Shown in pieces: positions 2,823-62,975 of a stretch of DNA of 64,000 bases. The position numbers and the translations under genes were made by a program. Position 1 is the stretch's first letter; the number at the start of each line of letters is the position of its first letter. The notes under the pieces are model-generated. The model did no database searches, was not told the origin of the DNA, and worked only from the letters and a program-made list of their open reading frames with translations. Origin of the DNA: an uncultured Candidatus Saccharibacteria bacterium (GTDB lineage: Bacteria; Patescibacteriota; Minisyncoccia; Phycocordibacterales; UBA9973); the NCBI GenBank assembly GCA_964646765.1, contig CAZYIA010000003.1:2815-66814 (forward strand), in the 5' to 3' direction.

Positions 2823-2905
2823 CACCCTATAGAGACAATGTAGAATCCGCTCCAAAAGGGCGGATTTTGCGTGATAAAATAAGGGATAGGCAAAAAGCCT
2901 CTACT

Positions 2906-3349
2906 ATGAAAAAAACTTTTACCATTTCAGAACTCCCCGATATCGCGAAAATGATACTCGCTCATGTTGGTAAGGAAAAACGTGAGGGTGCATTGGTTGT
3001 GACCGTTACTGGAGATTTAGGCGCTGGGAAGACCTCGCTTATTCAAGCAATCGCTAAAAAATTACAGATTAAGGAAACAGTGCATAGTCCAACCTTTGTT
3101 ATTTTAAAACGGTATCTAATTCCTAAAACAGCATCCTTAGGGGTTCGGTTTTCCAACCTAATTCATATCGACGCCTACCGTTTGATGCACGAACAAGAAC
3201 TTTCTAAATTAGGTTGGCATGAATTAGTGCACGATCAAAAAAATCTTATTTTTCTTGAGTGGCCAGAAAAAGTTCCTGGTCTTATTCCTAAAGATGCCAT
3301 CTCTATTTCACTCGATCACAAAGGGGAAGCTCGGCGGATTTCGTGGTAG
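2906..3349 (+). CDS. tsaE: tRNA threonylcarbamoyladenosine biosynthesis protein TsaE (YjeE-type P-loop ATPase)
   Basis: Internal ATG at 2906 in ORF 2621..3349. MKKTFTISELPDIAKMIL...VTVTGDLGAGKTSLIQAIAK is the characteristic TsaE P-loop. The upstream extension overlaps the preceding gene and is rejected. Confidence 0.75.
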   Translation: MKKTFTISELPDIAKMILAHVGKEKREGALVVTVTGDLGAGKTSLIQAIAKKLQIKETVHSPTFVILKRYLIPKTASLGVRFSNLIHIDAYRLMHEQELSKLGWHELVHDQKNLIFLEWPEKVPGLIPKDAISISLDHKGEARRISW

Positions 3350-4073: not shown

Positions 4074-6464
4074 ATGGCTAAAGAGGCACGAAAAAAGCTG
4101 GTTTTACTTGACTCCCACGCGATTATTCACCGGGCATATCATGCCTTACCAGATTTTTCGTCGTCGAAAGGAGAGCCAACGGGGGCGCTTTACGGGCTCT
4201 CCACGATGCTTTTGCGTATCGTTACTGACTTAAAACCCGATTATATTATTGCTTGTTACGATCTTCCCCAGAAAACATTTCGTCATGAAGCATATGATGC
4301 CTATAAGGCAGGGAGAGCAAAAGCCGATGAAGCTCTTATCTCTCAGATCATTGAATCACGTCGCGTTTTCGAAGCCTTTGGTGTGCCTATTTATGATGCC
4401 GTTGGGTTTGAGGCCGATGACGTGCTTGGGACAATTGTTGAAATAAGTCGAAGCGAAAAAGATCTTGATATTATCATTGCTTCCGGAGACATGGACACAC
4501 TCCAGCTTGTTGAGGGTACGCGTGTATCTGTTTTTACGTTACGAAAGGGAATTAATGACACCGTGCTCTACGACGAAGAGAGCGTGCTTGAGCGTTTCGG
4601 TTTTAAGCCAAAACTCTTACCTGACTATAAAGGTCTTCGTGGAGATCCATCTGATAACATTATTGGGATCAAAGGTATTGGCGAGAAAACCGCGCAGATT
4701 TTAATTTCTAAAATTGGAACTATTGAGAACCTCTATAAAAAATTAAAAACTGAAAAAGGGAAAAAGGAAATTAAAGAATTAGGGCTTACTGATCGAGTGG
4801 TGAATCTTTTGGTTGAAGGTGAAGAAGAAGCGCTATTCTCAAAAACGCTTGCAACGATTCGTCGCGATGCCCCAATTGCGTTCACGGTACCAGAAAAAAC
4901 ATTTCGTCAGTCCATTATTCTCGCCAACATTGAAGCACTTTTTCGAGAACTCGAGTTTCGCTCGCTGGTGGATCGGTTGCGCAAAGTGTTTGCTGAACAA
5001 GCGGCAGTACAAACAACCATGTTCGAAGAGGCTAACATTTCATCTTTTGATCCAAAGCAGCTCAAAGAACTTACCATTGCAGTTTGGCTTTTAAATAGTG
5101 AGGAAGGGTTACCAACCCCAGAGGATGTCTTAAGGTATAAAAATGCAGCTACAGGAGAAAAAGCCGCTGAGCTTATTTTGGCTGATATTGAGAAAGCCGG
5201 GCTTAGCTATGTCTACAAAACAATTGAACTTCCTCTTATTCCAATAATTTCCAAGATGGAAGAACGTGGAATTGCAGTTGATGTTCAATTTCTTAAAGAG
5301 CTAGGTAAGGAGTACCATAAAAATCTCTCGGCTATTGAGAAAGAAATTTATCGTCATGCCGGGCGAGAATTTAACATCAACTCACCAAAACAGCTCGGTG
5401 AAGTTCTCTATGATGAACTTAAGCTAGGGGAGACGAAAGGTGTACGACTCAAAAAAACTGCTGGTGGTGCACGTTCAACACGCGAGAGTGAGCTCGAAAA
5501 ACTTCGTGAGGCACATCCAATTATCGACGCTATTCTTCGTTTCCGCGAAATTCAAAAACTTCTCTCAACCTATATTGATACTATCCCTGATTTAGTGGGA
5601 AGCGACGGACGTCTCCATGCAAAGTTTCATCAAGCCGGTACGACAACTGGTCGCTTTTCTTCAACTGATCCTAACCTCCAGAATATTCCCATTAAGAACG
5701 ATCTGGGGCGTCGCGTTCGTCGCGGATTCGTCGCGGCAAAAGGACACACACTGCTTTCATTCGACTATTCACAGATTGAACTTCGTATCGCAGCCCTTCT
5801 TTCACAGGATGAATATCTTTTGAAGGTATTTGAAGAAGGCCGGGATGTACATGCCGCGGTTGCTTCTCGAGTGTTTGGTGTTAAAGAAACAGATGTTACT
5901 CGCGAAATGCGCCGTCGCGCAAAGGTTATTAACTTCGGAATTCTCTATGGCATGGGAGTAACAGCCCTTCAACAAAATTTAGGTACTGATAGAAAAGAAG
6001 CTCAAGCTTTTTACGATAATTATTTTGCTGAATTTCCAACGATTCGTGGTTACCTTGATGGAGTACTCGAATTTGCTGAGGCGAAAGGTTTTACCGAAAC
6101 CCTTTTTGGTCGCCGTCGTTACTTTGCTGCTCTTAAATCTAAAATTCCCTTTATTAAGGCCGCAGCAGAGCGTACGGCTATCAATGCTCCAATTCAAGGA
6201 ACTGCTGCTGATGTGCTTAAAATTGCCATGCAGCGCGCCGAGCGTGAACTTGCCGCCCAGAAACTTTCTGACAAAGCCCACCTGCTTCTTCAGGTGCATG
6301 ACGAACTCATTTACGAAGTTGAAGACAGTGTTGTTCAAAAAGTGGAAAGCATTGTTGAGGAAGCAATGCAAAATGCTATTCCACCAGAATTTTTGAAAGG
6401 TAAAAAGCCAGTACCACTTGCTGTTGGTAAAGGGCAAGCTTCTAATTGGGAAGATCTAAAATAA
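4074..6464 (+). CDS. polA: DNA polymerase I (5'-3' exonuclease + polymerase domains)
   Basis: 796 aa. The N-terminal 5'-nuclease domain (LLDSHAIIHRAYHAL..) and the family-A polymerase motifs (RRRAKVINFGILYGMG, QVHDELIYEV) are present. Confidence 0.9.
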   Translation: MAKEARKKLVLLDSHAIIHRAYHALPDFSSSKGEPTGALYGLSTMLLRIVTDLKPDYIIACYDLPQKTFRHEAYDAYKAGRAKADEALISQIIESRRVFEAFGVPIYDAVGFEADDVLGTIVEISRSEKDLDIIIASGDMDTLQLVEGTRVSVFTLRKGINDTVLYDEESVLERFGFKPKLLPDYKGLRGDPSDNIIGIKGIGEKTAQILISKIGTIENLYKKLKTEKGKKEIKELGLTDRVVNLLVEGEEEALFSKTLATIRRDAPIAFTVPEKTFRQSIILANIEALFRELEFRSLVDRLRKVFAEQAAVQTTMFEEANISSFDPKQLKELTIAVWLLNSEEGLPTPEDVLRYKNAATGEKAAELILADIEKAGLSYVYKTIELPLIPIISKMEERGIAVDVQFLKELGKEYHKNLSAIEKEIYRHAGREFNINSPKQLGEVLYDELKLGETKGVRLKKTAGGARSTRESELEKLREAHPIIDAILRFREIQKLLSTYIDTIPDLVGSDGRLHAKFHQAGTTTGRFSSTDPNLQNIPIKNDLGRRVRRGFVAAKGHTLLSFDYSQIELRIAALLSQDEYLLKVFEEGRDVHAAVASRVFGVKETDVTREMRRRAKVINFGILYGMGVTALQQNLGTDRKEAQAFYDNYFAEFPTIRGYLDGVLEFAEAKGFTETLFGRRRYFAALKSKIPFIKAAAERTAINAPIQGTAADVLKIAMQRAERELAAQKLSDKAHLLLQVHDELIYEVEDSVVQKVESIVEEAMQNAIPPEFLKGKKPVPLAVGKGQASNWEDLK

Positions 6465-12087: not shown

Positions 12088-12157
12088 AAAATGAGGCTAT
12101 AGGGATCGGTCACAAATCACTAAGTTTTTACCACGCAACGCGTGTTAAAACAAAGTG

Positions 12158-12250
12158 TTTGCGACCCCGCCTCGCCTGTCACTAGCGCGACATGGCTGCG
12201 GCCTTCGATCCCTGCTCGCATGTGAAGCAGTTCACATGCTTGAGCGGATA
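12158..12250 (-). repeat. tRNA-linked conserved element, copy A (downstream of tRNA-Lys): scaffold block + antisense T-arm segment + AAGCAGT-loop hairpin
   Basis: About 70% identical to copy B (47141..47245, opposite genomic orientation, same orientation relative to its tRNA), including a 16/16 block gcgaccccgcctcgcc (12161-12176). ttcgatccctgct (12204-12216) is the reverse orientation of the tRNA-Lys T-loop/T-stem. The hairpin catgtgaagcagttcacatg lies at 12219-12238. Confidence 0.6.
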
Positions 12251-17453: not shown

Positions 17454-17572
17454 TCGAAATCTCGCAAAAAATCAAAAAGCACTATCGGGTGCTTTTTGAT
17501 TTTAGCCTGTAAAAACTGGACGAAATGGCAAAAATACCGTATAGTAGCAACGCTTTTAGCTTAAAAGGCTAT

Positions 17573-17647
17573 GGTCCCGTCGTTCAATGGATAGGACGCA
17601 AGATTGCGGATCTTGCAATGCAGGTTCGATTCCTGCCGGGATCACCA
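17573..17647 (+). tRNA. tRNA-Arg (anticodon GCG as read; CCA encoded)
   Basis: Cloverleaf GGTCCCG-TC-GTTC-AATGGATA-GGAC-G-CAAGA-TTGCGGA-TCTTG-CAAT-GCAGG-TTCGATT-CCTGC-CGGGATC-A-CCA. The anticodon loop TTGCGGA gives GCG. The overlapping track ORF 17525..17935 is spurious over this region. Confidence 0.7.
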
Positions 17648-17653
17648 GAGACA

Positions 17654-17680
17654 AAAAGACTGCCCTGCGGCAGTCTTTTT
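17654..17680 (+). terminator. Rho-independent terminator after tRNA-Arg
   Basis: agactgcc-ctgc-ggcagtct stem followed by ttttt. Confidence 0.7.
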
Positions 17681-17683
17681 ACT

Positions 17684-17935
17684 GTGTGTGATGACTACAG
17701 CTATGTTTCGCGAGCACGCGAAACCGCGAGGGGCGGGCTGCGAAAATTTCGAGCGACTGGCGAGAAATTATTTGTAGCCACACTAACTGATACGGGATCA
17801 CCTGGTCATGAATCAAGTAAATTAGGACCAAAGACAAAAGCAGCCCTGATTAAGTTCCAAAAGGCTCACGGTATTCTTCCAGCGACCGGAAGATTTGGGC
17901 CAAGAACAAGAGCTTACTTCAATCAGCATCCATAG
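17684..17935 (+). CDS. Possible small ORF/gene remnant with a peptidoglycan-binding-domain-like C-terminus (GTG start; no signal peptide)
   Basis: The 3' portion of track ORF 17525..17935 downstream of the tRNA encodes ..LGPKTKAALIKFQKAHGILPATGRFGPRTRAYFN, a PG_binding_1-type motif also present at the C-terminus of CDS 42822..45614. There is no ATG; a GTG lies at about 17684. Confidence 0.25.
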   Translation: MCDDYSYVSRARETARGGLRKFRATGEKLFVATLTDTGSPGHESSKLGPKTKAALIKFQKAHGILPATGRFGPRTRAYFNQHP

Positions 17936-18021
17936 TAGAAGATTTAAAAAAACCGCTTTTCGCGGGTTTTTTAAATCCGATTGTTTTTTAAGTATGTGTT
18001 GTTACACTGTCTGTATAGTTT

Positions 18022-18693
18022 ATGAAGTTTATTGATCTTACGCATACTCTCTCAAGCGATACTGTTTCCTGGGATGGCGATTGCGGATTTACTCTCACTA
18101 ATCAGGTTGATTACCAAGATTGCGTGTCACCAGATCTGTTTCGAGTCCAAAAAATAGAAACCCGAGCAGGAATGGGTACGCATATGGATGCTCCAGCACA
18201 CTGTATCTCTGGTGGAAAAACAATCGAAGCACTCGAACTTTCTGATTTGATAACCGATTGCGTGGTTATTGACGTTTCGAATGAAGCTGACGAAAATTTT
18301 TTGGTTACGCCGGAGGTAATAGAAAGCTTTGAAAAAGAATATGGAAAAATCCCCGAGCGTGCCTTCGTGATTTTTTATACCGGCTGGAGTAATTATTGGG
18401 ATGATAAAGAAAAGTATCGCAATAATCTACAGTTTCCTTCGGTTTCTGAAGAAACAGCAAAAGTATTACTTAAACGAAATATTGCAGGACTCGGTATTGA
18501 TACGCTCTCAGCTGACACAGGCAAAAATGGTTTTCCGGTACACCGATCAATTTTGGGCGCAGGGAAGTATCTGGTTGAAAACATTGCTAATGCAAGTGAG
18601 CTTCCACCAACTGGCTCAAAAATTTGCGTGTTGCCGATAAAAATTAAAGAGGGAACTGAGGCGCCTATTCGGTTAATCGCCCTTGTTGGGTAA
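18022..18693 (+). CDS. Cyclase-family protein (kynurenine formamidase-like metal-dependent hydrolase)
   Basis: HMDAPAH motif and the overall pattern (FIDLTHTLS...GIDTLSAD) match the putative cyclase / arylformamidase family. Confidence 0.6.
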   Translation: MKFIDLTHTLSSDTVSWDGDCGFTLTNQVDYQDCVSPDLFRVQKIETRAGMGTHMDAPAHCISGGKTIEALELSDLITDCVVIDVSNEADENFLVTPEVIESFEKEYGKIPERAFVIFYTGWSNYWDDKEKYRNNLQFPSVSEETAKVLLKRNIAGLGIDTLSADTGKNGFPVHRSILGAGKYLVENIANASELPPTGSKICVLPIKIKEGTEAPIRLIALVG

Positions 18694-34193: not shown

Positions 34194-34904
34194 TTATGAA
34201 CCCTGGTTTTTAACCCGGTACACATTCATAACATTATGCGCCAAACGGGTTGGTTCAGGCATTCGATGGTCTCGGATTACTCGTAACACCCACCCAATAG
34301 ATTCTTGGACGGTAATGCGGTGACCAGGAGAAATAAACATTGGTTTCACTTTTCGCTTTGTTCGTACTGCGGCTCCGATGTTTTCTTTCGAAACAAACCT
34401 ATCACGTAAGTAAGAAAAAGAACCCCGTTCAAATTCTGGCTCCTCATATATTCCAGTGAGAACTTTTTTAGCACAACCGATGGTTGGAATATCTAATAGA
34501 ACGCCTAAGTGTGAAGCAATACCAATACGGCGTGGATGGGCAATGCCAACACCATCAACAAAAATAAGATCAGGAATCTGTTTCAGTTTTTTCCAAGCGT
34601 GAAGTAGCGCCGGCACTTCACGAAATGAGAGTAAGCCAGGAACATACGGGAACGATGTTTCTTCGCGTACTACCGCGTGGTCAACAAGAATAAGTTCAGG
34701 GTAGGTGAGAACAACAAAACCAGCGAAAATAGTTGTCGAATACAAATTCATCGAAACATCACATCCGGCAATAAAGCGGACTTTTTTGTTAAACGGTACG
34801 AGGCGCACTTTTTCTCGCAAATCTTTTTGAATTGCGACAGCTTCTTTGGGTGAAACATTCCAGTTGTGGGTAATTTTATTCATCATTTTTATACTAACGC
34901 GCAA
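34194..34904 (-). CDS. nfi: Endonuclease V (deoxyinosine 3' endonuclease)
   Basis: YVPGLLSFREVPALLHAWKKL...IFVDGVGIAHPRRIGIASHLGVLLDIPTIGCAKK matches the Endonuclease V family closely. The likely start is the internal MNKITHNW. Confidence 0.8.
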   Translation of the reverse strand: MRVSIKMMNKITHNWNVSPKEAVAIQKDLREKVRLVPFNKKVRFIAGCDVSMNLYSTTIFAGFVVLTYPELILVDHAVVREETSFPYVPGLLSFREVPALLHAWKKLKQIPDLIFVDGVGIAHPRRIGIASHLGVLLDIPTIGCAKKVLTGIYEEPEFERGSFSYLRDRFVSKENIGAAVRTKRKVKPMFISPGHRITVQESIGWVLRVIRDHRMPEPTRLAHNVMNVYRVKNQGS

Positions 34905-42821: not shown

Positions 42822-45614
42822 ATGAAAATATCCCACCTTCGATCGCTCGTAGTCGCCTTTATTATTTTAGTAGCGTTCAGTTTCACTACTCAGCAAGCGT
42901 ATGCTTTCTCAGGTGGGTCGGGTACCGATGGTGATCCGTATCAAATGACGACGTGTGCTGATTTTGAAAGTATGCTCTCTAGTCCAATGGCGTCGTTTAT
43001 TTTTGAAAACGATATCGACTGTACTGCGGATGGAAATGCGGTTGGCTTCGCCACTATTTTTGGAGGGCACATTAATGGTAATGGTCACAAATTAACCTAC
43101 GCACTTACTACAACCGGTCCGTCATCATCATGGGCGCTCATTGAGGATTTCTCAGGGATTATTGAAAATTTGTGGGTTGATGGCACCGTTACCGACACCT
43201 ATGGTTCTGATGTATTGAGTGGCCTTATCTATAGTATGGATAGTGGAACCATTTCGAATGTAAAAAATACGGTTACGATTGTTGGTGGCACAGGAACCGG
43301 CTTGGTTGGTGGTTTTGCGTCCTATATGCAGGGCGGAACTATTGAAGATTCCTACTTTAGCGGAAGTATTGTTACTAACGGCGATACTGTTGGTGGTTTA
43401 GTTGGCCGAATGAACGCGGGAACAATTACTAATTCCTATGCCGCTGGAACCGTTGAAGGGGTTAATAATGTCGGTGGGCTGGTTGGTTACTTAGATAGCG
43501 GAACCATTACTAACAGTTTTGCGTCACCAACAATGAGTGGGACAACCCTCGGTGGTTTAGTTGGTTGGTATCAGAGCATGGTTGGCGGGGGAGTATTTTC
43601 GGGAGATTATTGGGACATTACTCGTACCACACAAACAACATGTAATCAGCAAGGCGATATCATTTCCGGTTGTACTGGTGTAAATAGTGGAAGCAGTAGC
43701 CCGAACTATTTTACCGACAATACTAATGCGCCACTTTCAGCATGGAACACTTCTACCTGGACGTTCTCGCCCGGAAATAGTCTTCCCGAATTAACCCTGT
43801 TTTCTTCAGATTCAACATCATTTATTACTACCTGGAAAACTAATAACCCAGGTGTATCAGCGAATAACCAAATTACTATCCCAACCTTTTCTGGGGCAAC
43901 ATATAACTACAACGTTGATTGGGGCGATGGAGAGACAGACACTGGAGTAACCGGGAATATAACGCATACTTATGCGACAGCTGGAACGTACACAGTAAAA
44001 ATTTCTGGAACGTTCCCGCGCATTTATTTTGATGATGGCGGGTATACTGACGCACAAAAAATTCTTTCGATCGAGCAATGGGGAAATAATCCATGGACTT
44101 CTTTTGGTAATTCCTTTGCTGGTTGTATTAACCTTATTTTGAACGCAACTGATACACCCGATCTCTCAAACGTGACCGATATGGGATATATGTTCCTCAA
44201 TGCCACTTCTCTAAATACCGACATCCACACTTGGGACGTTTCTCATGTGCAAAGTATGTATGGAACATTTCAAAGTGCAACCTCATTCAATCAACCACTC
44301 AACAGTTGGAATGTTTCAAACGTTGTGAACATGGGCTATATGTTTGAAAATGCCACTCACTTCAATCAAGATCTCAGTTCCTGGAATACTTCAAATGTCA
44401 CTGAAATGGATTCCATGTTTAACCAAGCAAGTAACTTCAATCAGGATCTCAGCAATTGGGATGTTTCGCACGTAGTAAATATGGGAGCCATGTTTTATGC
44501 AGCGTATGCGTTTGATAACGGCGGAGTGGCACTTACCTGGAATACGGCGAGTGCACAGTATATGAATGGAATGTTTAATTTGTCGCAGTTCAATCAAGAC
44601 ATTAGTTCTTGGGATGTTTCGCACGTGACTACATTTGCAAGTATGTTTAACGCCGACCATGCATTCAATCAGGATATTAGCGGCTGGGATGTTTCGCATG
44701 CCAACGATATGAATTTAATGTTCTATGCCGCTAACGCTTTCAACCAAGACCTCAGTTCTTGGGATGTCTCACATGTGACGGATCTGAGCGGTATGTTTTA
44801 CTTTGCAACCTCATTCAATCAACCGCTCAACAGTTGGAATGTTTCAAGCGCTACCAACATGGCATACATGTTTGCAAACGCAAGTGCCTTCAATCAAAAT
44901 CTTGGTAACTGGAACGTATCGCACGTGACCAATATGGACACTATGTTTGGTGATGCTAGTTCGTTTGATCAAGATATAAGTTCATGGAATATTTCGCATG
45001 TAACAAACATGCTCGGCATGTTTACAAACGTAACGCTCTCCACTGCTCACTATGATGCGCTCCTTACCTCGTGGTCGGTAGAATCGCCAGAGTCCGGAGT
45101 ATCCTTTACCGCGGGTAACAGTTTGTATTGTTCTTCTGTCGAAGCTGCTCGTCGCATACTCACAACGACGTATAGTTGGGCGATCACTGACGGGGGAGTA
45201 GATGGCAGTTGTCCTACAGTTTCTTCAGGTGGCAGCAGTGGTGTCGTTCCCGTCTGGATTTTGCAATCTATGAGTGACCAACTACGTGCAGCTCAGACGG
45301 CTTCTCAGTCAACGAGCGCGGTACCTGCCAATCCAATACCTTCTACCACCGATGCATTTGTGTTTACAAAATATCTCAAGCTCGGGATGACTGACAGCCA
45401 GGTTAAAAAGTTGCAAGCATTCCTCAATGCGCACGGTGCACAAGTTTCAGCAAGTGGAGATGGTGCCCCTGGACACGAAACAACTTCTTTTGGAAAGAAA
45501 ACGCTTAAGGCTCTCGCTCTCTACCAAAAAGCAAATGGTATCAAGCCATCATCAGGATATTTTGGTCCGGTCACAATGAAGCTCGTCAACCAGTTACTCT
45601 CTCAGGAAAAGTAA
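42822..45614 (+). CDS. Giant secreted surface protein with Gly-rich (GGLVG) repeats, a PKD domain, about 11 tandem DUF285/BspA-type repeats and a C-terminal peptidoglycan-binding domain
   Basis: Signal peptide. The PKD-like segment is YNYNVDWGDGETDTGVTGNITHTYATAGTYTVKISG. The repeat unit F...FNQD(L/I)S.W(D/N)VSHV..M..MF is iterated from about 44130 to 45010. The C-terminus FGKKTLKALALYQKANGIKPSSGYFGPVTMKLVNQLL is PG_binding_1-like. Confidence 0.75.
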   Translation: MKISHLRSLVVAFIILVAFSFTTQQAYAFSGGSGTDGDPYQMTTCADFESMLSSPMASFIFENDIDCTADGNAVGFATIFGGHINGNGHKLTYALTTTGPSSSWALIEDFSGIIENLWVDGTVTDTYGSDVLSGLIYSMDSGTISNVKNTVTIVGGTGTGLVGGFASYMQGGTIEDSYFSGSIVTNGDTVGGLVGRMNAGTITNSYAAGTVEGVNNVGGLVGYLDSGTITNSFASPTMSGTTLGGLVGWYQSMVGGGVFSGDYWDITRTTQTTCNQQGDIISGCTGVNSGSSSPNYFTDNTNAPLSAWNTSTWTFSPGNSLPELTLFSSDSTSFITTWKTNNPGVSANNQITIPTFSGATYNYNVDWGDGETDTGVTGNITHTYATAGTYTVKISGTFPRIYFDDGGYTDAQKILSIEQWGNNPWTSFGNSFAGCINLILNATDTPDLSNVTDMGYMFLNATSLNTDIHTWDVSHVQSMYGTFQSATSFNQPLNSWNVSNVVNMGYMFENATHFNQDLSSWNTSNVTEMDSMFNQASNFNQDLSNWDVSHVVNMGAMFYAAYAFDNGGVALTWNTASAQYMNGMFNLSQFNQDISSWDVSHVTTFASMFNADHAFNQDISGWDVSHANDMNLMFYAANAFNQDLSSWDVSHVTDLSGMFYFATSFNQPLNSWNVSSATNMAYMFANASAFNQNLGNWNVSHVTNMDTMFGDASSFDQDISSWNISHVTNMLGMFTNVTLSTAHYDALLTSWSVESPESGVSFTAGNSLYCSSVEAARRILTTTYSWAITDGGVDGSCPTVSSGGSSGVVPVWILQSMSDQLRAAQTASQSTSAVPANPIPSTTDAFVFTKYLKLGMTDSQVKKLQAFLNAHGAQVSASGDGAPGHETTSFGKKTLKALALYQKANGIKPSSGYFGPVTMKLVNQLLSQEK

Positions 45615-46918: not shown

Positions 46919-47015
46919 ACAGAAATGAAGTCACCATTATAGTCTCTAGTTACAGAAATGCCCAAATTTTTAATAAACATTGAAAAAAGCTTGAAAATAC
47001 TGTAGTGTATGCCGC

Positions 47016-47100
47016 GGAGGCGTGGGTGAGTGGTTTAAACCAACGGTCTTGAAAACCGTCGTGTCGAAAGGCACCGTGAGTTCGAATCTCACCGCCTCCG
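47016..47100 (+). tRNA. tRNA-Ser (anticodon TGA)
   Basis: GGAGGCG-TG-GGT-GAGTGGTTTAA-ACC-A-ACGGT-CTTGAAA-ACCGT-[long variable arm CGTGTCGAAAGGCACC]-GTGAG-TTCGAAT-CTCAC-CGCCTCC-G. CCA is not encoded. Confidence 0.85.
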
Positions 47101-47110
47101 CAAGTACAAA

Positions 47111-47140
47111 AAAGAGCCCGAAAGGGCCTTTTTTGTTTGA
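47111..47140 (+). terminator. Weak rho-independent terminator after tRNA-Ser
   Basis: gccc-gaaa-gggc stem plus ttttttg. Confidence 0.4.
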
Positions 47141-47245
47141 CGCAGGCGAGCACGCAGACTGCTTTACGTGCGGGTGAGATTCGAAAGCCGCAGCGTGTCG
47201 CCTTGGCGACGGCGAGGCGGGGTCGCGAACACTTGGTAGTTTTGG
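47141..47245 (+). repeat. tRNA-linked conserved element, copy B (downstream of tRNA-Ser)
   Basis: About 70% identity to the reverse complement of 12158..12250, including the 16/16 block ggcgaggcggggtcgc (47211-47226). ggtgagattcgaa (47173-47185) is the reverse complement of the tRNA-Ser T-loop/T-stem (ttcgaatctcacc). A hairpin with an aaagcagt loop precedes it. Confidence 0.6.
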
Positions 47246-47364
47246 GAGTGAGACGAGCAAAAATACTTAGTGATTCGTGACCGAATCTCCCGTTCTTAAG
47301 TTTTAGTCGCGGGCGAATCGGCCGTCTCCGCAGAAATAGATAATTCTGATATTATTTTAATTGC

Positions 47365-62123: not shown

Positions 62124-62732
62124 CTAGGTGGAGGAAATCTGAACAGTGTTTATTTTTGTAAGTACCCGCCTTCGTATCAGGCAGATAACTATTAGCACCG
62201 TATTCGCAGCTGAAATTGCAATAAGGTAACTCAGTGTTAGAAAGTTATATTCTTTTAAGGCAGCAATCGCAAAACAGTTTCCAACAACAAATAAGATGAA
62301 TGTTAAGACCGTCTCACTCCATGGTTCTTGAAATGCTTTTCGGTAGCTTGGTATATACCCCAAGACATCAATAATACAGATCAGAAGAATTGAAAGGAAA
62401 GGATTTTTAAGTTGCCACCAAATTATTATTGCAGAAAGAACAGCTATAAGTATGACTGTATCGCCGAGAGTGATATTTCTTGTGCCATATTTGAAAGACA
62501 AGAGAAAGATAAGGCACATCATTACTGTCCCTATAATTAACTCAAGTCCACCAATTCCGCCTCCACCATATAACAATCCGGCGAGTGCAGTTCCTTGCGT
62601 CAGAATCCATATGAACCAGGTATAAGCGTGCGGTTGAGTCTTTTTTAAGAAGATGTCTCTTATATAGGGGAGAAACGCCGTTGTACCAACAGCGACAGAG
62701 ATGAAGGCGAATATGAGTTTAATAGGCAACAA
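62124..62732 (-). CDS. Hypothetical polytopic membrane protein
   Basis: Six TM helices. TTG start in the track. Confidence 0.45.
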   Translation of the reverse strand: MLPIKLIFAFISVAVGTTAFLPYIRDIFLKKTQPHAYTWFIWILTQGTALAGLLYGGGGIGGLELIIGTVMMCLIFLLSFKYGTRNITLGDTVILIAVLSAIIIWWQLKNPFLSILLICIIDVLGYIPSYRKAFQEPWSETVLTFILFVVGNCFAIAALKEYNFLTLSYLIAISAANTVLIVICLIRRRVLTKINTVQISST

Positions 62733-62766
62733 TTTGAGTATATCAAAATTATAGTTTCTAATTTTG

Positions 62767-62838
62767 TGCCCCCGCGAGGAATCGAACCTCGAATAGCGGC
62801 TTAGAAGTCCGCAGTTATATCCATTTAACTACAGGGGC
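62767..62838 (-). tRNA. tRNA-Arg (anticodon TCT)
   Basis: Minus-strand GCCCCTG-TA-GTTA-AATGGATA-TAAC-T-GCGGA-CTTCTAA-GCCGC-TATT-CGAGG-TTCGATT-CCTCG-CGGGGGC-A. Confidence 0.75.
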
Positions 62839-62929
62839 AAGTGGGCATATCTATTGTACTTCAAAAAACAGTTCGGGACTCGCCGACTACATCGGCAGGT
62901 ACTTTTCTCATTTGCTTCTCAAATATAGA

Positions 62930-62975
62930 AAAGTCTTTCAAGTTCCTCACGCGAGCAAAGCAGTTTGCTCGCTCC
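62930..62975 (-). repeat. tRNA-linked element, diverged copy C (downstream of tRNA-Val): antisense T-arm segment + AAGCAGT-loop hairpin
   Basis: ttcaagttcctcac (62937-62950) matches the tRNA-Val T-loop/T-stem (ttcaagtccctcac) 13/14 in inverted orientation. It is followed by the hairpin gcgagcaaagcagtttgctcgc (62951-62972). Confidence 0.5.

Follow-up and report, generated by a model that had tools for sequence, protein, structure and literature searches.

The 64-kb stretch analysed here (positions 2,815 to 66,814 of contig CAZYIA010000003.1, assembly GCA_964646765.1, from an uncultured Candidatus Saccharibacteria bacterium; hereafter the window) carries a tRNA-Arg gene with a GCG anticodon, an element with a predicted multi-helix fold directly behind it on the same strand (copy C, one of four copies in the window), and an open reading frame (ORF) that runs through both (Table 1). 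Taken as a whole, the locus is probably best explained as a tRNA-Arg(GCG) gene with an intact short-subtype element, the ORF being an artefact of the gene caller.

ARAGORN puts gcg at position 34 and assigns the isotype Arg, as the earlier sequence-only reading of this DNA had proposed, and the Rfam tRNA model scores the gene at 60.7 bits against a gathering score of 29. The cloverleaf (-30 kcal/mol) has a 7-bp acceptor stem, discriminator A and an encoded CCA, and the 7-nt anticodon loop UUGCGGA reads G34-C35-G36. In E. coli the identity elements for arginyl-tRNA synthetase (ArgRS) are C35, G/U36 and A20; the gene appears to possess these known elements as C35, G36 and A20, the latter placed by the D-loop AAUGGAUA. 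The consensus scan upstream of the gene returned one promoter-like site against 1.1 expected, which is weak evidence. On these features the gene is sound, and we regard it as an ordinary, functional tRNA gene. The anticodon-loop 10-mer GATTGCGGAT (17602-17611) occurs again at 18079-18088, inside a cyclase gene, most likely by coincidence, and single 10-nt repeats in this window are therefore weak evidence.

Table 1. Features of the tRNA-Arg(GCG) locus and copies of the trailer element in the window (R2, covariance model built from relatives)
Feature	Position	Strand	Evidence or remark
Promoter-like site TGGACG-17-TATAGT	17517..17545	+	Consensus scan; ~28 nt upstream of tRNA-Arg
Gene-track ORF, 136 codons	17525..17935	+	Starts before tRNA-Arg, reads through tRNA and element
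tRNA-Arg, anticodon GCG	17573..17647	+	ARAGORN call; Rfam tRNA; fold
Copy C, after tRNA-Arg(gcg)	17656-17799	+	R2 46.8 bits, E ~2e-10, model positions 1-129
P1, 12-bp hairpin AAAAAGACUGCC-CUGC-GGCAGUCUUUUU	17653..17680	+	Sequence; aligned as P1 by models R1 and R2
Antisense cassette GTGAT	17688..17692	+	Complementary to tRNA 3'-terminal ATCAC (17641-17645)
GAC-UACAGCUAU junction, P3 hairpin, CGCGAGGGGC junction	17693..17734	+	Alignment to 46 other unique copies; covariation
P3 hairpin GUUUCGCG-AGCA-CGCGAAAC (arm also as GTTTCGCG-AGCA-CGCGAAAC)	17705-17724	+	
P4, long hairpin GGCUGCGAAAAUUU...AAAUUAUUUGUAGCC	17736..17779	+	Sequence identical in 57 metagenome loci (P4 fixed by the search pattern)
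Element 3' end CACAC	17779..17785	+	Can pair with GUGUG at 17684-17688 (P2); model alignments
Direct repeat of tRNA-Arg 3' end (17637-17646), 10 nt, CGGGATCACC	17793..17802	+	At +145 nt
3' remnant of PG_binding_1-domain gene	17795..17935	+	Pfam, BLASTP; stop codon kept, no own start
Copy A, after tRNA-Lys(ttt)	12088-12239	-	R2 102 bits
Copy B, after tRNA-Ser(tga)	47150-47302	+	R2 90 bits
Copy D, after tRNA-Val(tac)	62862-62972	-	R2 49.1 bits; found by R1

The GTDB collection, with one genome per species, was scanned with the tRNA-Arg anticodon arm, leaving position 34 free (GACGCAAGATTNCGGATCTTGC). This returned 102 species genomes, essentially all of them Patescibacteria of the candidate phyla radiation (CPR), from Paceibacterota/Parcubacteria and from Taylor-, Yanofsky-, Magasanik-, Wolfe-, Harrison-, Colwell- and Falkowbacteria. 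Position 34 of the arm was G in 98 genomes, C in four and A in none. Among the 202 tRNAs that ARAGORN called in these loci, the Arg tRNAs had the anticodons gcg (95), ccg (5), tcg (1), tct (6) and cct (1), and none of the 202 had A34. A second sample of 95 tRNAs came from loci picked by means of the trailer element described below, independently of the anticodon; it contained nine Arg gcg, no Arg acg and no A34 tRNA. The two samples together comprise 297 tRNAs on genome fragments. Because the gene order ruvA-rpsT-tRNA-Arg(gcg) is kept in about 30 of the anticodon-arm genomes, we regard the gene as ancestral and not as a stray. A GCG anticodon is unusual in bacteria generally but is the norm in this lineage, where tRNA-Arg(GCG) is the standard reader of CGU and CGC, with CGA and CGG probably left to UCG and CCG isoacceptors. 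The sequence-only reading had singled out the anticodon as an oddity, with ACG and CCG as the normal bacterial CGN readers, and had itself named a lineage-wide prevalence of GCG as refuting this view. The frequency of G34 refutes it in that way, and the survey for tRNA-Arg(ACG) came out empty among the sampled relatives.

In relatives, Arg tRNAs with the anticodons CCG, UCG and UCU were found in the flanks of the GCG gene. Counted over all ORFs of the window, Arg is encoded by CGT (224), CGC (244), CGA (192), CGG (62), AGA (52) and AGG (14); the codons are mostly CGN (722 of 788, with 66 AGA/AGG), at 43% GC. None of the five tRNAs that ARAGORN finds in the 64-kb window can read CGA, despite the frequency of this codon, and since CGN is heavily used, a UCG and/or CCG partner must sit elsewhere in the genome. 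With G34 encoded instead of A34, no inosine made by TadA would be needed. No HAE...PCxxC deaminase was found in the 64-kb window, and 1.2 Mb of relatives' fragments contained two TadA-like deaminases, at 85 and 59 bits against a curated TadA cut-off of 150. One point tells against this account of decoding, namely that the absence of tadA and of tRNA-Arg(ACG) refers to these 1.2 Mb of sampled fragments. The higher-scoring of the two genes encodes a CDA-fold deaminase, which appears to resemble B. subtilis guanine deaminase (GuaD); it begins 1 nt past a tRNA-Arg(gcg) gene (locus L050, 3489-3956, + strand). A gene for endonuclease V (PF04493) lies at 34194-34904 (-) of the window, in a lineage apparently without inosine-34 tRNA.

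Encoding of G34 has precedents. In the Mycoplasma pneumoniae group, GCG took the place of ACG once tadA had been lost (PMC3711424), and Mollicutes with tRNA-Arg GCG and UCG likewise have G34 instead of A34/I34 for CGU and CGC (Yokobori et al. 2013, PMC3711424). Archaea, with G34 in all four-codon boxes, also encode G34 for these two codons, and decoding of the Mollicutes and archaeal type shares the separate UCG and CCG isoacceptors seen here in relatives. The trait appears phylum-wide in Patescibacteria, whereas in Mycoplasma it is confined to a few reduced clades; CGN is, moreover, heavily used here, and loss of tadA, known for Mollicutes, is here no more than a possibility. If confirmed, a whole bacterial superphylum would decode CGN without an A34 or I34 tRNA, which is the archaeal and Mycoplasma solution, and this would touch on the essentiality of TadA in bacteria and on the annotation of tRNA sets in CPR genomes.

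An exact-core search of the first 104 loci for the element behind the tRNA gene gave no matches, and covariance models were therefore built. Model R1 was derived from window copies A and B; model R2 was built from relatives' matches only, in order to avoid circularity, and was run over the window with filters off. Its best background match in the window reaches 14.9 bits, well below any of the four copies. Copy C scores 26.5 bits with R1, and its full-length match to R2 means that the stretch behind tRNA-Arg is a complete family member. Trailer elements follow four of the five window tRNAs. The sole tRNA without one is tRNA-Arg(tct) (62700-62838, - strand), with an ORF beginning about 35 nt downstream; copy D does not figure in the sequence-only reading.

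Copies A and B share a layout of P1 with a CUGC loop, a closing helix P2, P3 (outer stem and inner hairpin), a GCGAGG junction, P4 and a sense copy of the tRNA T-arm. The 5' strand of P2 in both is the reverse complement, over 13 nt, of the T-loop and 3' T-stem of the upstream tRNA. This antisense cassette matches the T-arm of its own tRNA at 13/13 positions in A, 13/13 in B and 13/14 in D, and in A and B the match to the tRNA (13 nt) is longer than that to the element's own sense copy (8 nt). R1 copies in relatives always lie just 3' of a tRNA on the same strand, mostly tRNA-Arg(gcg). In an alignment of 16 R1 matches, fitted to the model, 95% of cells pair; when the partners are slid, the figure falls to about 40%. 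Compensatory change is seen in 38 of the 45 pairs. G.U/U.G pairs outnumber A.C/C.A pairs by 34 to 6 in the family, which makes the fold specific to the tRNA-sense strand; an RNA, or a single strand of DNA, would be expected to show this. At the gathering threshold Rfam 15 recognized only the five tRNAs in the window, and at E up to 10 the regions 17560-17960 and 47000-47360 gave only noise (≤25 bits), with no T-box, ribozyme or known small RNA (sRNA). A literature search that included the core sequences found no description of the trailer element and, as a precedent, only the Mollicutes GCG case; the element is apparently undescribed.

P1 of copy C has the shape of an intrinsic terminator, being GC-rich with a U-tract, and is at the same time the first helix of the family, with the family's CUGC loop. 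The terminator scanner made no call on it, because pairing of the A-tract with the U-tract uses up the tail. The GTGAT cassette lengthens P1 down to the 3' end of tRNA-Arg, and the minimum free energy fold of 17634-17696 pairs the tRNA end with the cassette (GAUCACC with GUGUGAU, z = -5.8). The core begins 82 nt past the tRNA 3' end on the same strand, and its P4 has two G.U pairs that are invariant across the family. The only broken pair is a U.C at P3b columns 17-41, a break unique to copy C; one P3 pair is compensated (C-G for U-A), and the P4 apex has a 1-nt insertion. The 10-nt repeat CGGGATCACC sits where long-subtype relatives have their copy of the tRNA 3' end; it also codes for a conserved G-S-P of the protein remnant discussed below and may be coincidental. 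A GAGCGAAGCGAG-like motif with the mini-hairpin sequence GCGAAGC was seen at hairpin tips and in tRNA trailers (L014, L040, L055, L057, L083), and copy C carries the similar CGAGCGACUGGCGAG at the P4 apex (17750-17764).

A scan of metagenomes with the P4 sequence of copy C (GAGGGGCGGGCTGCGAAAA...TTTGTAGCC) gave 62 copies at 57 loci. Upstream of GAGGGG, 47 of the 55 uncut copies have the end of a same-strand tRNA, at a distance of 78-82 nt in the short subtype; in four copies of the long subtype the distance is 105-117 nt, and in two tandem pairs the second copy lies 213-216 nt from the tRNA. Nine anticodons were found upstream: Arg tct (13 copies, the commonest host of the short subtype), Arg gcg (7), Ala tgc (6), Lys ttt (6), Glu ttc (4), Ile gat (4), Arg cct (4), Ala ggc (2) and Leu cag (1). 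In the short subtype the tRNA is followed by an A-tract, a stem, a loop (often ACUGCUU), the returning stem, a U-tract and a cassette of 5-7 nt, and then by GACCRCAGCGATG, the hairpin GTTTTGCGAGCACGCAAAAC and CGCGAGGGGCGGGCTGCGAAAATTYCGAGCGACGGCGAGRAATTATTTGTAGCCACA; the core of about 95 nt comprises the P3 hairpin, the GCGAGG junction and the P4 hairpin. In at least 40 copies the cassette is antisense to the final 5-7 nt of the preceding tRNA, whatever its identity, as in the pairs GGTGCC/GGCACC and GTGGA/TCCAC, and in GGTGAT/ATCACC of L113, where the tRNA end is the same as in the window. Copy C agrees with the short-subtype consensus at every part and is, judging from this agreement, a full-length copy of a shorter, very conserved subtype.

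Outside the part fixed by the search pattern, P3b column pair 16-42 is C-G in 14 and U-A in six cases, and all eight pairs of the P3 hairpin have compensatory variants. At the P4 apex, pair 65-81 is U-A (10) or C-G (8) and pair 70-76 is C-G (15) or U-A (5). Near-identical copies follow tRNA-Arg(gcg) in L014, L113, L116, L140 and L154; the near-twin in L014 (2643-2779, 52 bits) is likewise without the long cassette. The closest relative is L113, a 609-kb contig whose RuvA is 64% identical and whose rpsT-tRNA-Arg(gcg)-element stretch has 82% nucleotide identity to window 17572-17785. In the blastn comparison the similarity to L113 stops at 17785, the 3' end of copy C.

In the long subtype, found in the window behind tRNA-Lys, tRNA-Ser and tRNA-Val, the cassette spans 12-19 nt and is antisense to the T-loop plus the 3' T-stem; the element closes with a direct copy of the 3' part of the tRNA. 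For about 45 of the 202 tRNAs, the 350 nt downstream contain 10 nt or more of the tRNA's last 32 nt in antisense and/or direct orientation, antisense copies typically at +40 to +80 and direct copies, up to 27 nt long, typically at +120 to +180; in upstream controls 10 nt was reached only 3-4 times. In full versions (L040, L057, L083) the 5' side has an anti-acceptor strand as well, and the 3' end consists, in order, of T-loop, T-stem, acceptor, discriminator and CCA, so arranged that the whole seems to resemble a tRNA-like acceptor/T helix with P3-P4 inserted in the T-loop. When the filled site L024 is compared with the empty site L028, the sequence past the second TACTGAGGGCAC is homologous to what directly follows the L028 tRNA; elements of the long subtype accordingly behave like insertions, with the tRNA 3' end duplicated in the process. 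Offsets likewise agree for L083/L094 and L057/L041. Tandem copies are present in L014, L046, L057, L108, L147, L157 and L165. By Pfam context, no integrase, transposase, reverse transcriptase or Cas-like gene lies near the copies in the window or in L108, and only a few ambiguous cases emerged when tRNA ends were looked for as direct repeats far away, which would mark full-size integrated elements.

These comparisons establish, at the level of sequence, a conserved, covarying and strand-specific predicted fold that is anchored to tRNA 3' ends, with a cassette that tracks each tRNA. It is conceivable, though in our view less likely than not, that copies A-D represent a so far undescribed class of structured RNAs anchored to tRNAs, or of RNA-like mobile modules, with a wide distribution in Patescibacteria; the cassette, being complementary to the T-arm or 3' end of the tRNA in front, would programme each copy. 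The explanation that we favour, though with limited credence, is that the element is a co-transcribed and processed tRNA-trailer RNA. It would be transcribed with the tRNA as its 3' trailer, and the cassette would extend P1 into a duplex of 20-30 bp that includes the terminal nucleotides of the tRNA. This duplex could act as a processing stem for RNase III-type or other nucleases, setting the tRNA 3' end, and cleavage would free the core as a stable small RNA. Recombination at the duplicated tRNA 3' end may have carried copies from one tRNA gene to others. The excess of G.U over A.C pairs and the compensatory changes are indirect signs of an element that acts as RNA.

A class of this kind, if real, would couple, in a lineage-specific manner, tRNA 3'-end maturation or the targeting of tRNA genes to a conserved RNA of about 100 nt without counterpart in known RNA families. 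If confirmed, the element could be a new tRNA-linked small RNA, a novel way of processing tRNA 3' ends in organisms whose RNA-processing machinery is minimal, or a new kind of miniature element targeting tRNA genes.

Several observations weigh against a trailer RNA. P1 of copy C makes a good terminator-like hairpin, and transcription may reach the core only rarely; copy C also has one broken P3b pair and a cassette of 5 nt only. The pair counts of the 16 R1 matches came from the fitted alignment, and P4 of the short subtype was fixed by the search pattern, which makes its invariance partly a matter of construction. The presence/absence polymorphism with duplication of the tRNA 3' end fits mobile DNA as well as trailer RNA, and tandem arrays and near-identical cores behind different tRNAs fit it equally.

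The best surviving alternative, somewhat unlikely in our view, is that the element is primarily a small piece of mobile or integrative DNA, non-autonomous and directed at tRNA 3' ends, any RNA being incidental. The cassette and the tRNA-end copy would fold, single-stranded, into a duplex that mimics the target, much like integron attC sites or the folded attP of CTX phage, and a recombinase encoded elsewhere would insert the element, duplicating the tRNA 3' end. The filled and empty sites with agreeing offsets, the excess of direct and antisense tRNA-end copies over upstream controls, and the tandem arrays all favour such an element, as do near-identical cores that follow different tRNAs in one genome with their own cassettes (L018; window copies A and B); a strand-specific fold also suits single-stranded DNA. 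However, there is no integrase, transposase or reverse transcriptase near the copies examined, the short subtype is almost without target duplication, and the fixed distance and orientation of the element to the tRNA fit co-transcription. In addition, the short-subtype hairpin varies freely, while the core is strongly conserved even though RuvA is only 64% identical, which argues for selection on function and against recent spread. The trailer-RNA and mobile-element explanations are compatible and do not exclude each other.

It is more doubtful that copy C is a decaying, non-functional relic of which only the P1 hairpin still works, as a terminator for the tRNA. The broken P3b pair unique to this copy, the inserted nucleotide in the P4 apex, a cassette of 5 nt instead of 6-7 nt, the GC-rich P1 with its U-tract and a neighbourhood rearranged relative to L113 could all be read in this way. 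Against this, the identity to the orthologous L113 copy is high while the flanking non-coding DNA has no similarity, the compensated P3 pair indicates continued selection, and all other helices are intact.

The sequence-only reading had combined an anomalous GCG isoacceptor with a scaffold copy whose centre, hairpin included, had been lost by deletion, and this we consider highly improbable. GCG is indeed rare in most bacterial phyla (PMC3711424), and the anti-T-arm cassette of 12-13 nt is, as that reading had noted, absent from copy C, where the 5-nt GTGAT stands in its place. But GCG is found in 98 of the 102 lineage genomes, R2 aligns the stretch 17653-17785 over its full length with all helices present, the central hairpin among them, and more than 40 near-identical complete copies stand behind other tRNAs. 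The resemblance that had been seen to both ends of copy B is true homology for gcgagg.cgggg, the junction into helix P4, and chance for gcgagcacgc. The latter has five window matches with at most one mismatch against 2.6 expected, 15 of 100 shuffles do as well, and it forms the 5' foot of hairpin P1 in copy B but the tip of the P3 hairpin in copy C, positions that are not homologous.

Parts of the trailer element recall known systems. Like the 3' external transcribed spacer (3'ETS) RNAs of tRNA transcripts, such as E. coli 3'ETS-leuZ, it is non-coding and lies directly 3' of a tRNA on the same strand, and on the trailer-RNA proposal it would also use the tRNA promoter and be freed by processing. 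It differs from them in its conserved multi-helix fold of about 100-130 nt behind many different tRNAs and in a cassette that covaries with each tRNA 3' end, neither of which, to our knowledge, is known for 3'ETS RNAs. The long subtype is flanked by a repeat from T-loop to 3' end, as in the attachment-site (att) duplications of tRNA-targeting integrases (T-loop-type attB) and in their miniature derivatives resembling cis-mobilizable elements (CIMEs) or miniature inverted-repeat transposable elements (MITEs), and it shares with these the filled and empty sites and the tandem arrays. With the folded single-strand recombination sites integron attC and CTX phage attP it shares a strand-specific fold whose structure is conserved more than its sequence. 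Unlike in att systems, the insert is only about 130-200 bp, no recombinase is nearby and an inverted copy of the target is added; the short subtype (copy C) is essentially without duplication, whereas long-subtype relatives have clear repeats of 12-27 nt. In the T-box antiterminator, too, a short segment can pair with the tRNA 3' terminus (UGGN with the tRNA NCCA end) and covaries with the discriminator region. However, T-boxes lie in mRNA leaders, while the element lies 3' of a tRNA gene, has no Stem I, specifier or Rfam T-box match, and pairs in cis with a genomic trailer.

Further candidates were dropped: the T-box itself and hammerhead or other self-cleaving ribozymes, for want of a conserved core or Rfam support; a box C/D k-turn, its GUGAUGA...CUGA being specific to copy C; a retron msr/msd, with no reverse transcriptase; and an IS110 bridge RNA or TnpB/IscB guide RNA, with no nuclease or recombinase.

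The ORF at 17525-17935 is an artefact of gene calling, and only its last ~45 codons derive from a protein. Residues 93-130 match positions 19-55 of the 57-position PG_binding_1 profile (29.7 bits, above the Pfam cut-off), with 52% identity over 44 aa to the C-terminus of a 930-aa protein (42822-45614), so that the peptidoglycan (PG)-binding tail of the same type reported in the sequence-only reading is real, as is its assignment to a gene fragment: the first third of the domain is missing and no start codon lies past 17684. The only in-frame starts are at 17525 (before the tRNA), at 17618 (inside it) and at 17684 (a GTG inside the element); the GTG has no Shine-Dalgarno sequence before it, and no signal peptide was found in the ORF. 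A homologue search with the PG fragment returned only the fragment itself, called as an 83-aa protein, and a synteny search found no full-length PG gene at this position in relatives, the PG-domain matches lying elsewhere or on the other strand. Homology to protein begins about 10 nt past the element end. The remnant is evidently the C-terminal two-thirds of a PG_binding_1 domain, to all appearance left by a rearrangement that broke the DNA right next to the element's 3' end. A likening of LRKFRA, upstream of the remnant, to VKKLQA was rejected, the stretch being the conserved P4 helix. By tblastn the P4-translated part of the ORF matches another element copy (L166), which shows conservation of the element and not of a protein. 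That the ORF, or its 83-codon version from the GTG at 17684, is a real small peptidoglycan-binding protein is hardly credible, for although gene callers predict it, the frame is open for 136 codons and the domain exceeds the Pfam cut-off, its first 90 codons coincide with a tRNA gene and a conserved RNA element, its domain lacks the first third, signal peptide and Shine-Dalgarno sequence are wanting, and its sole homologue is itself. Gene callers evidently translate trailer elements, with "proteins" of 136 and 83 aa called here.

A scan of viral contigs gave two matches, one of which, L108 (IMG/VR UViG_3300033463_005745), has three real tandem trailer elements at 2837-3319 (-). Its flanks are cellular, with genes for a GalE-like epimerase, a cytidine deaminase, a GDSL lipase and an acetyltransferase, so there is no evidence for a phage origin, which was rejected; the viral label of the contig is doubtful.

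In L018, tRNA-Arg(gcg) and tRNA-Arg(tct) (462-534 and 4840-4912) have the same acceptor stem and T-arm, without a difference, and the trailers and elements behind them are near-identical, which suggests concerted evolution or gene conversion between tRNA-plus-element units. Logan contigs L105, L107 and L002 of this genome end inside tRNA-Lys (~12328), element B (~47260) and tRNA-Arg (~17591), respectively, suggesting that tRNA/element repeats fragment metagenome assemblies.

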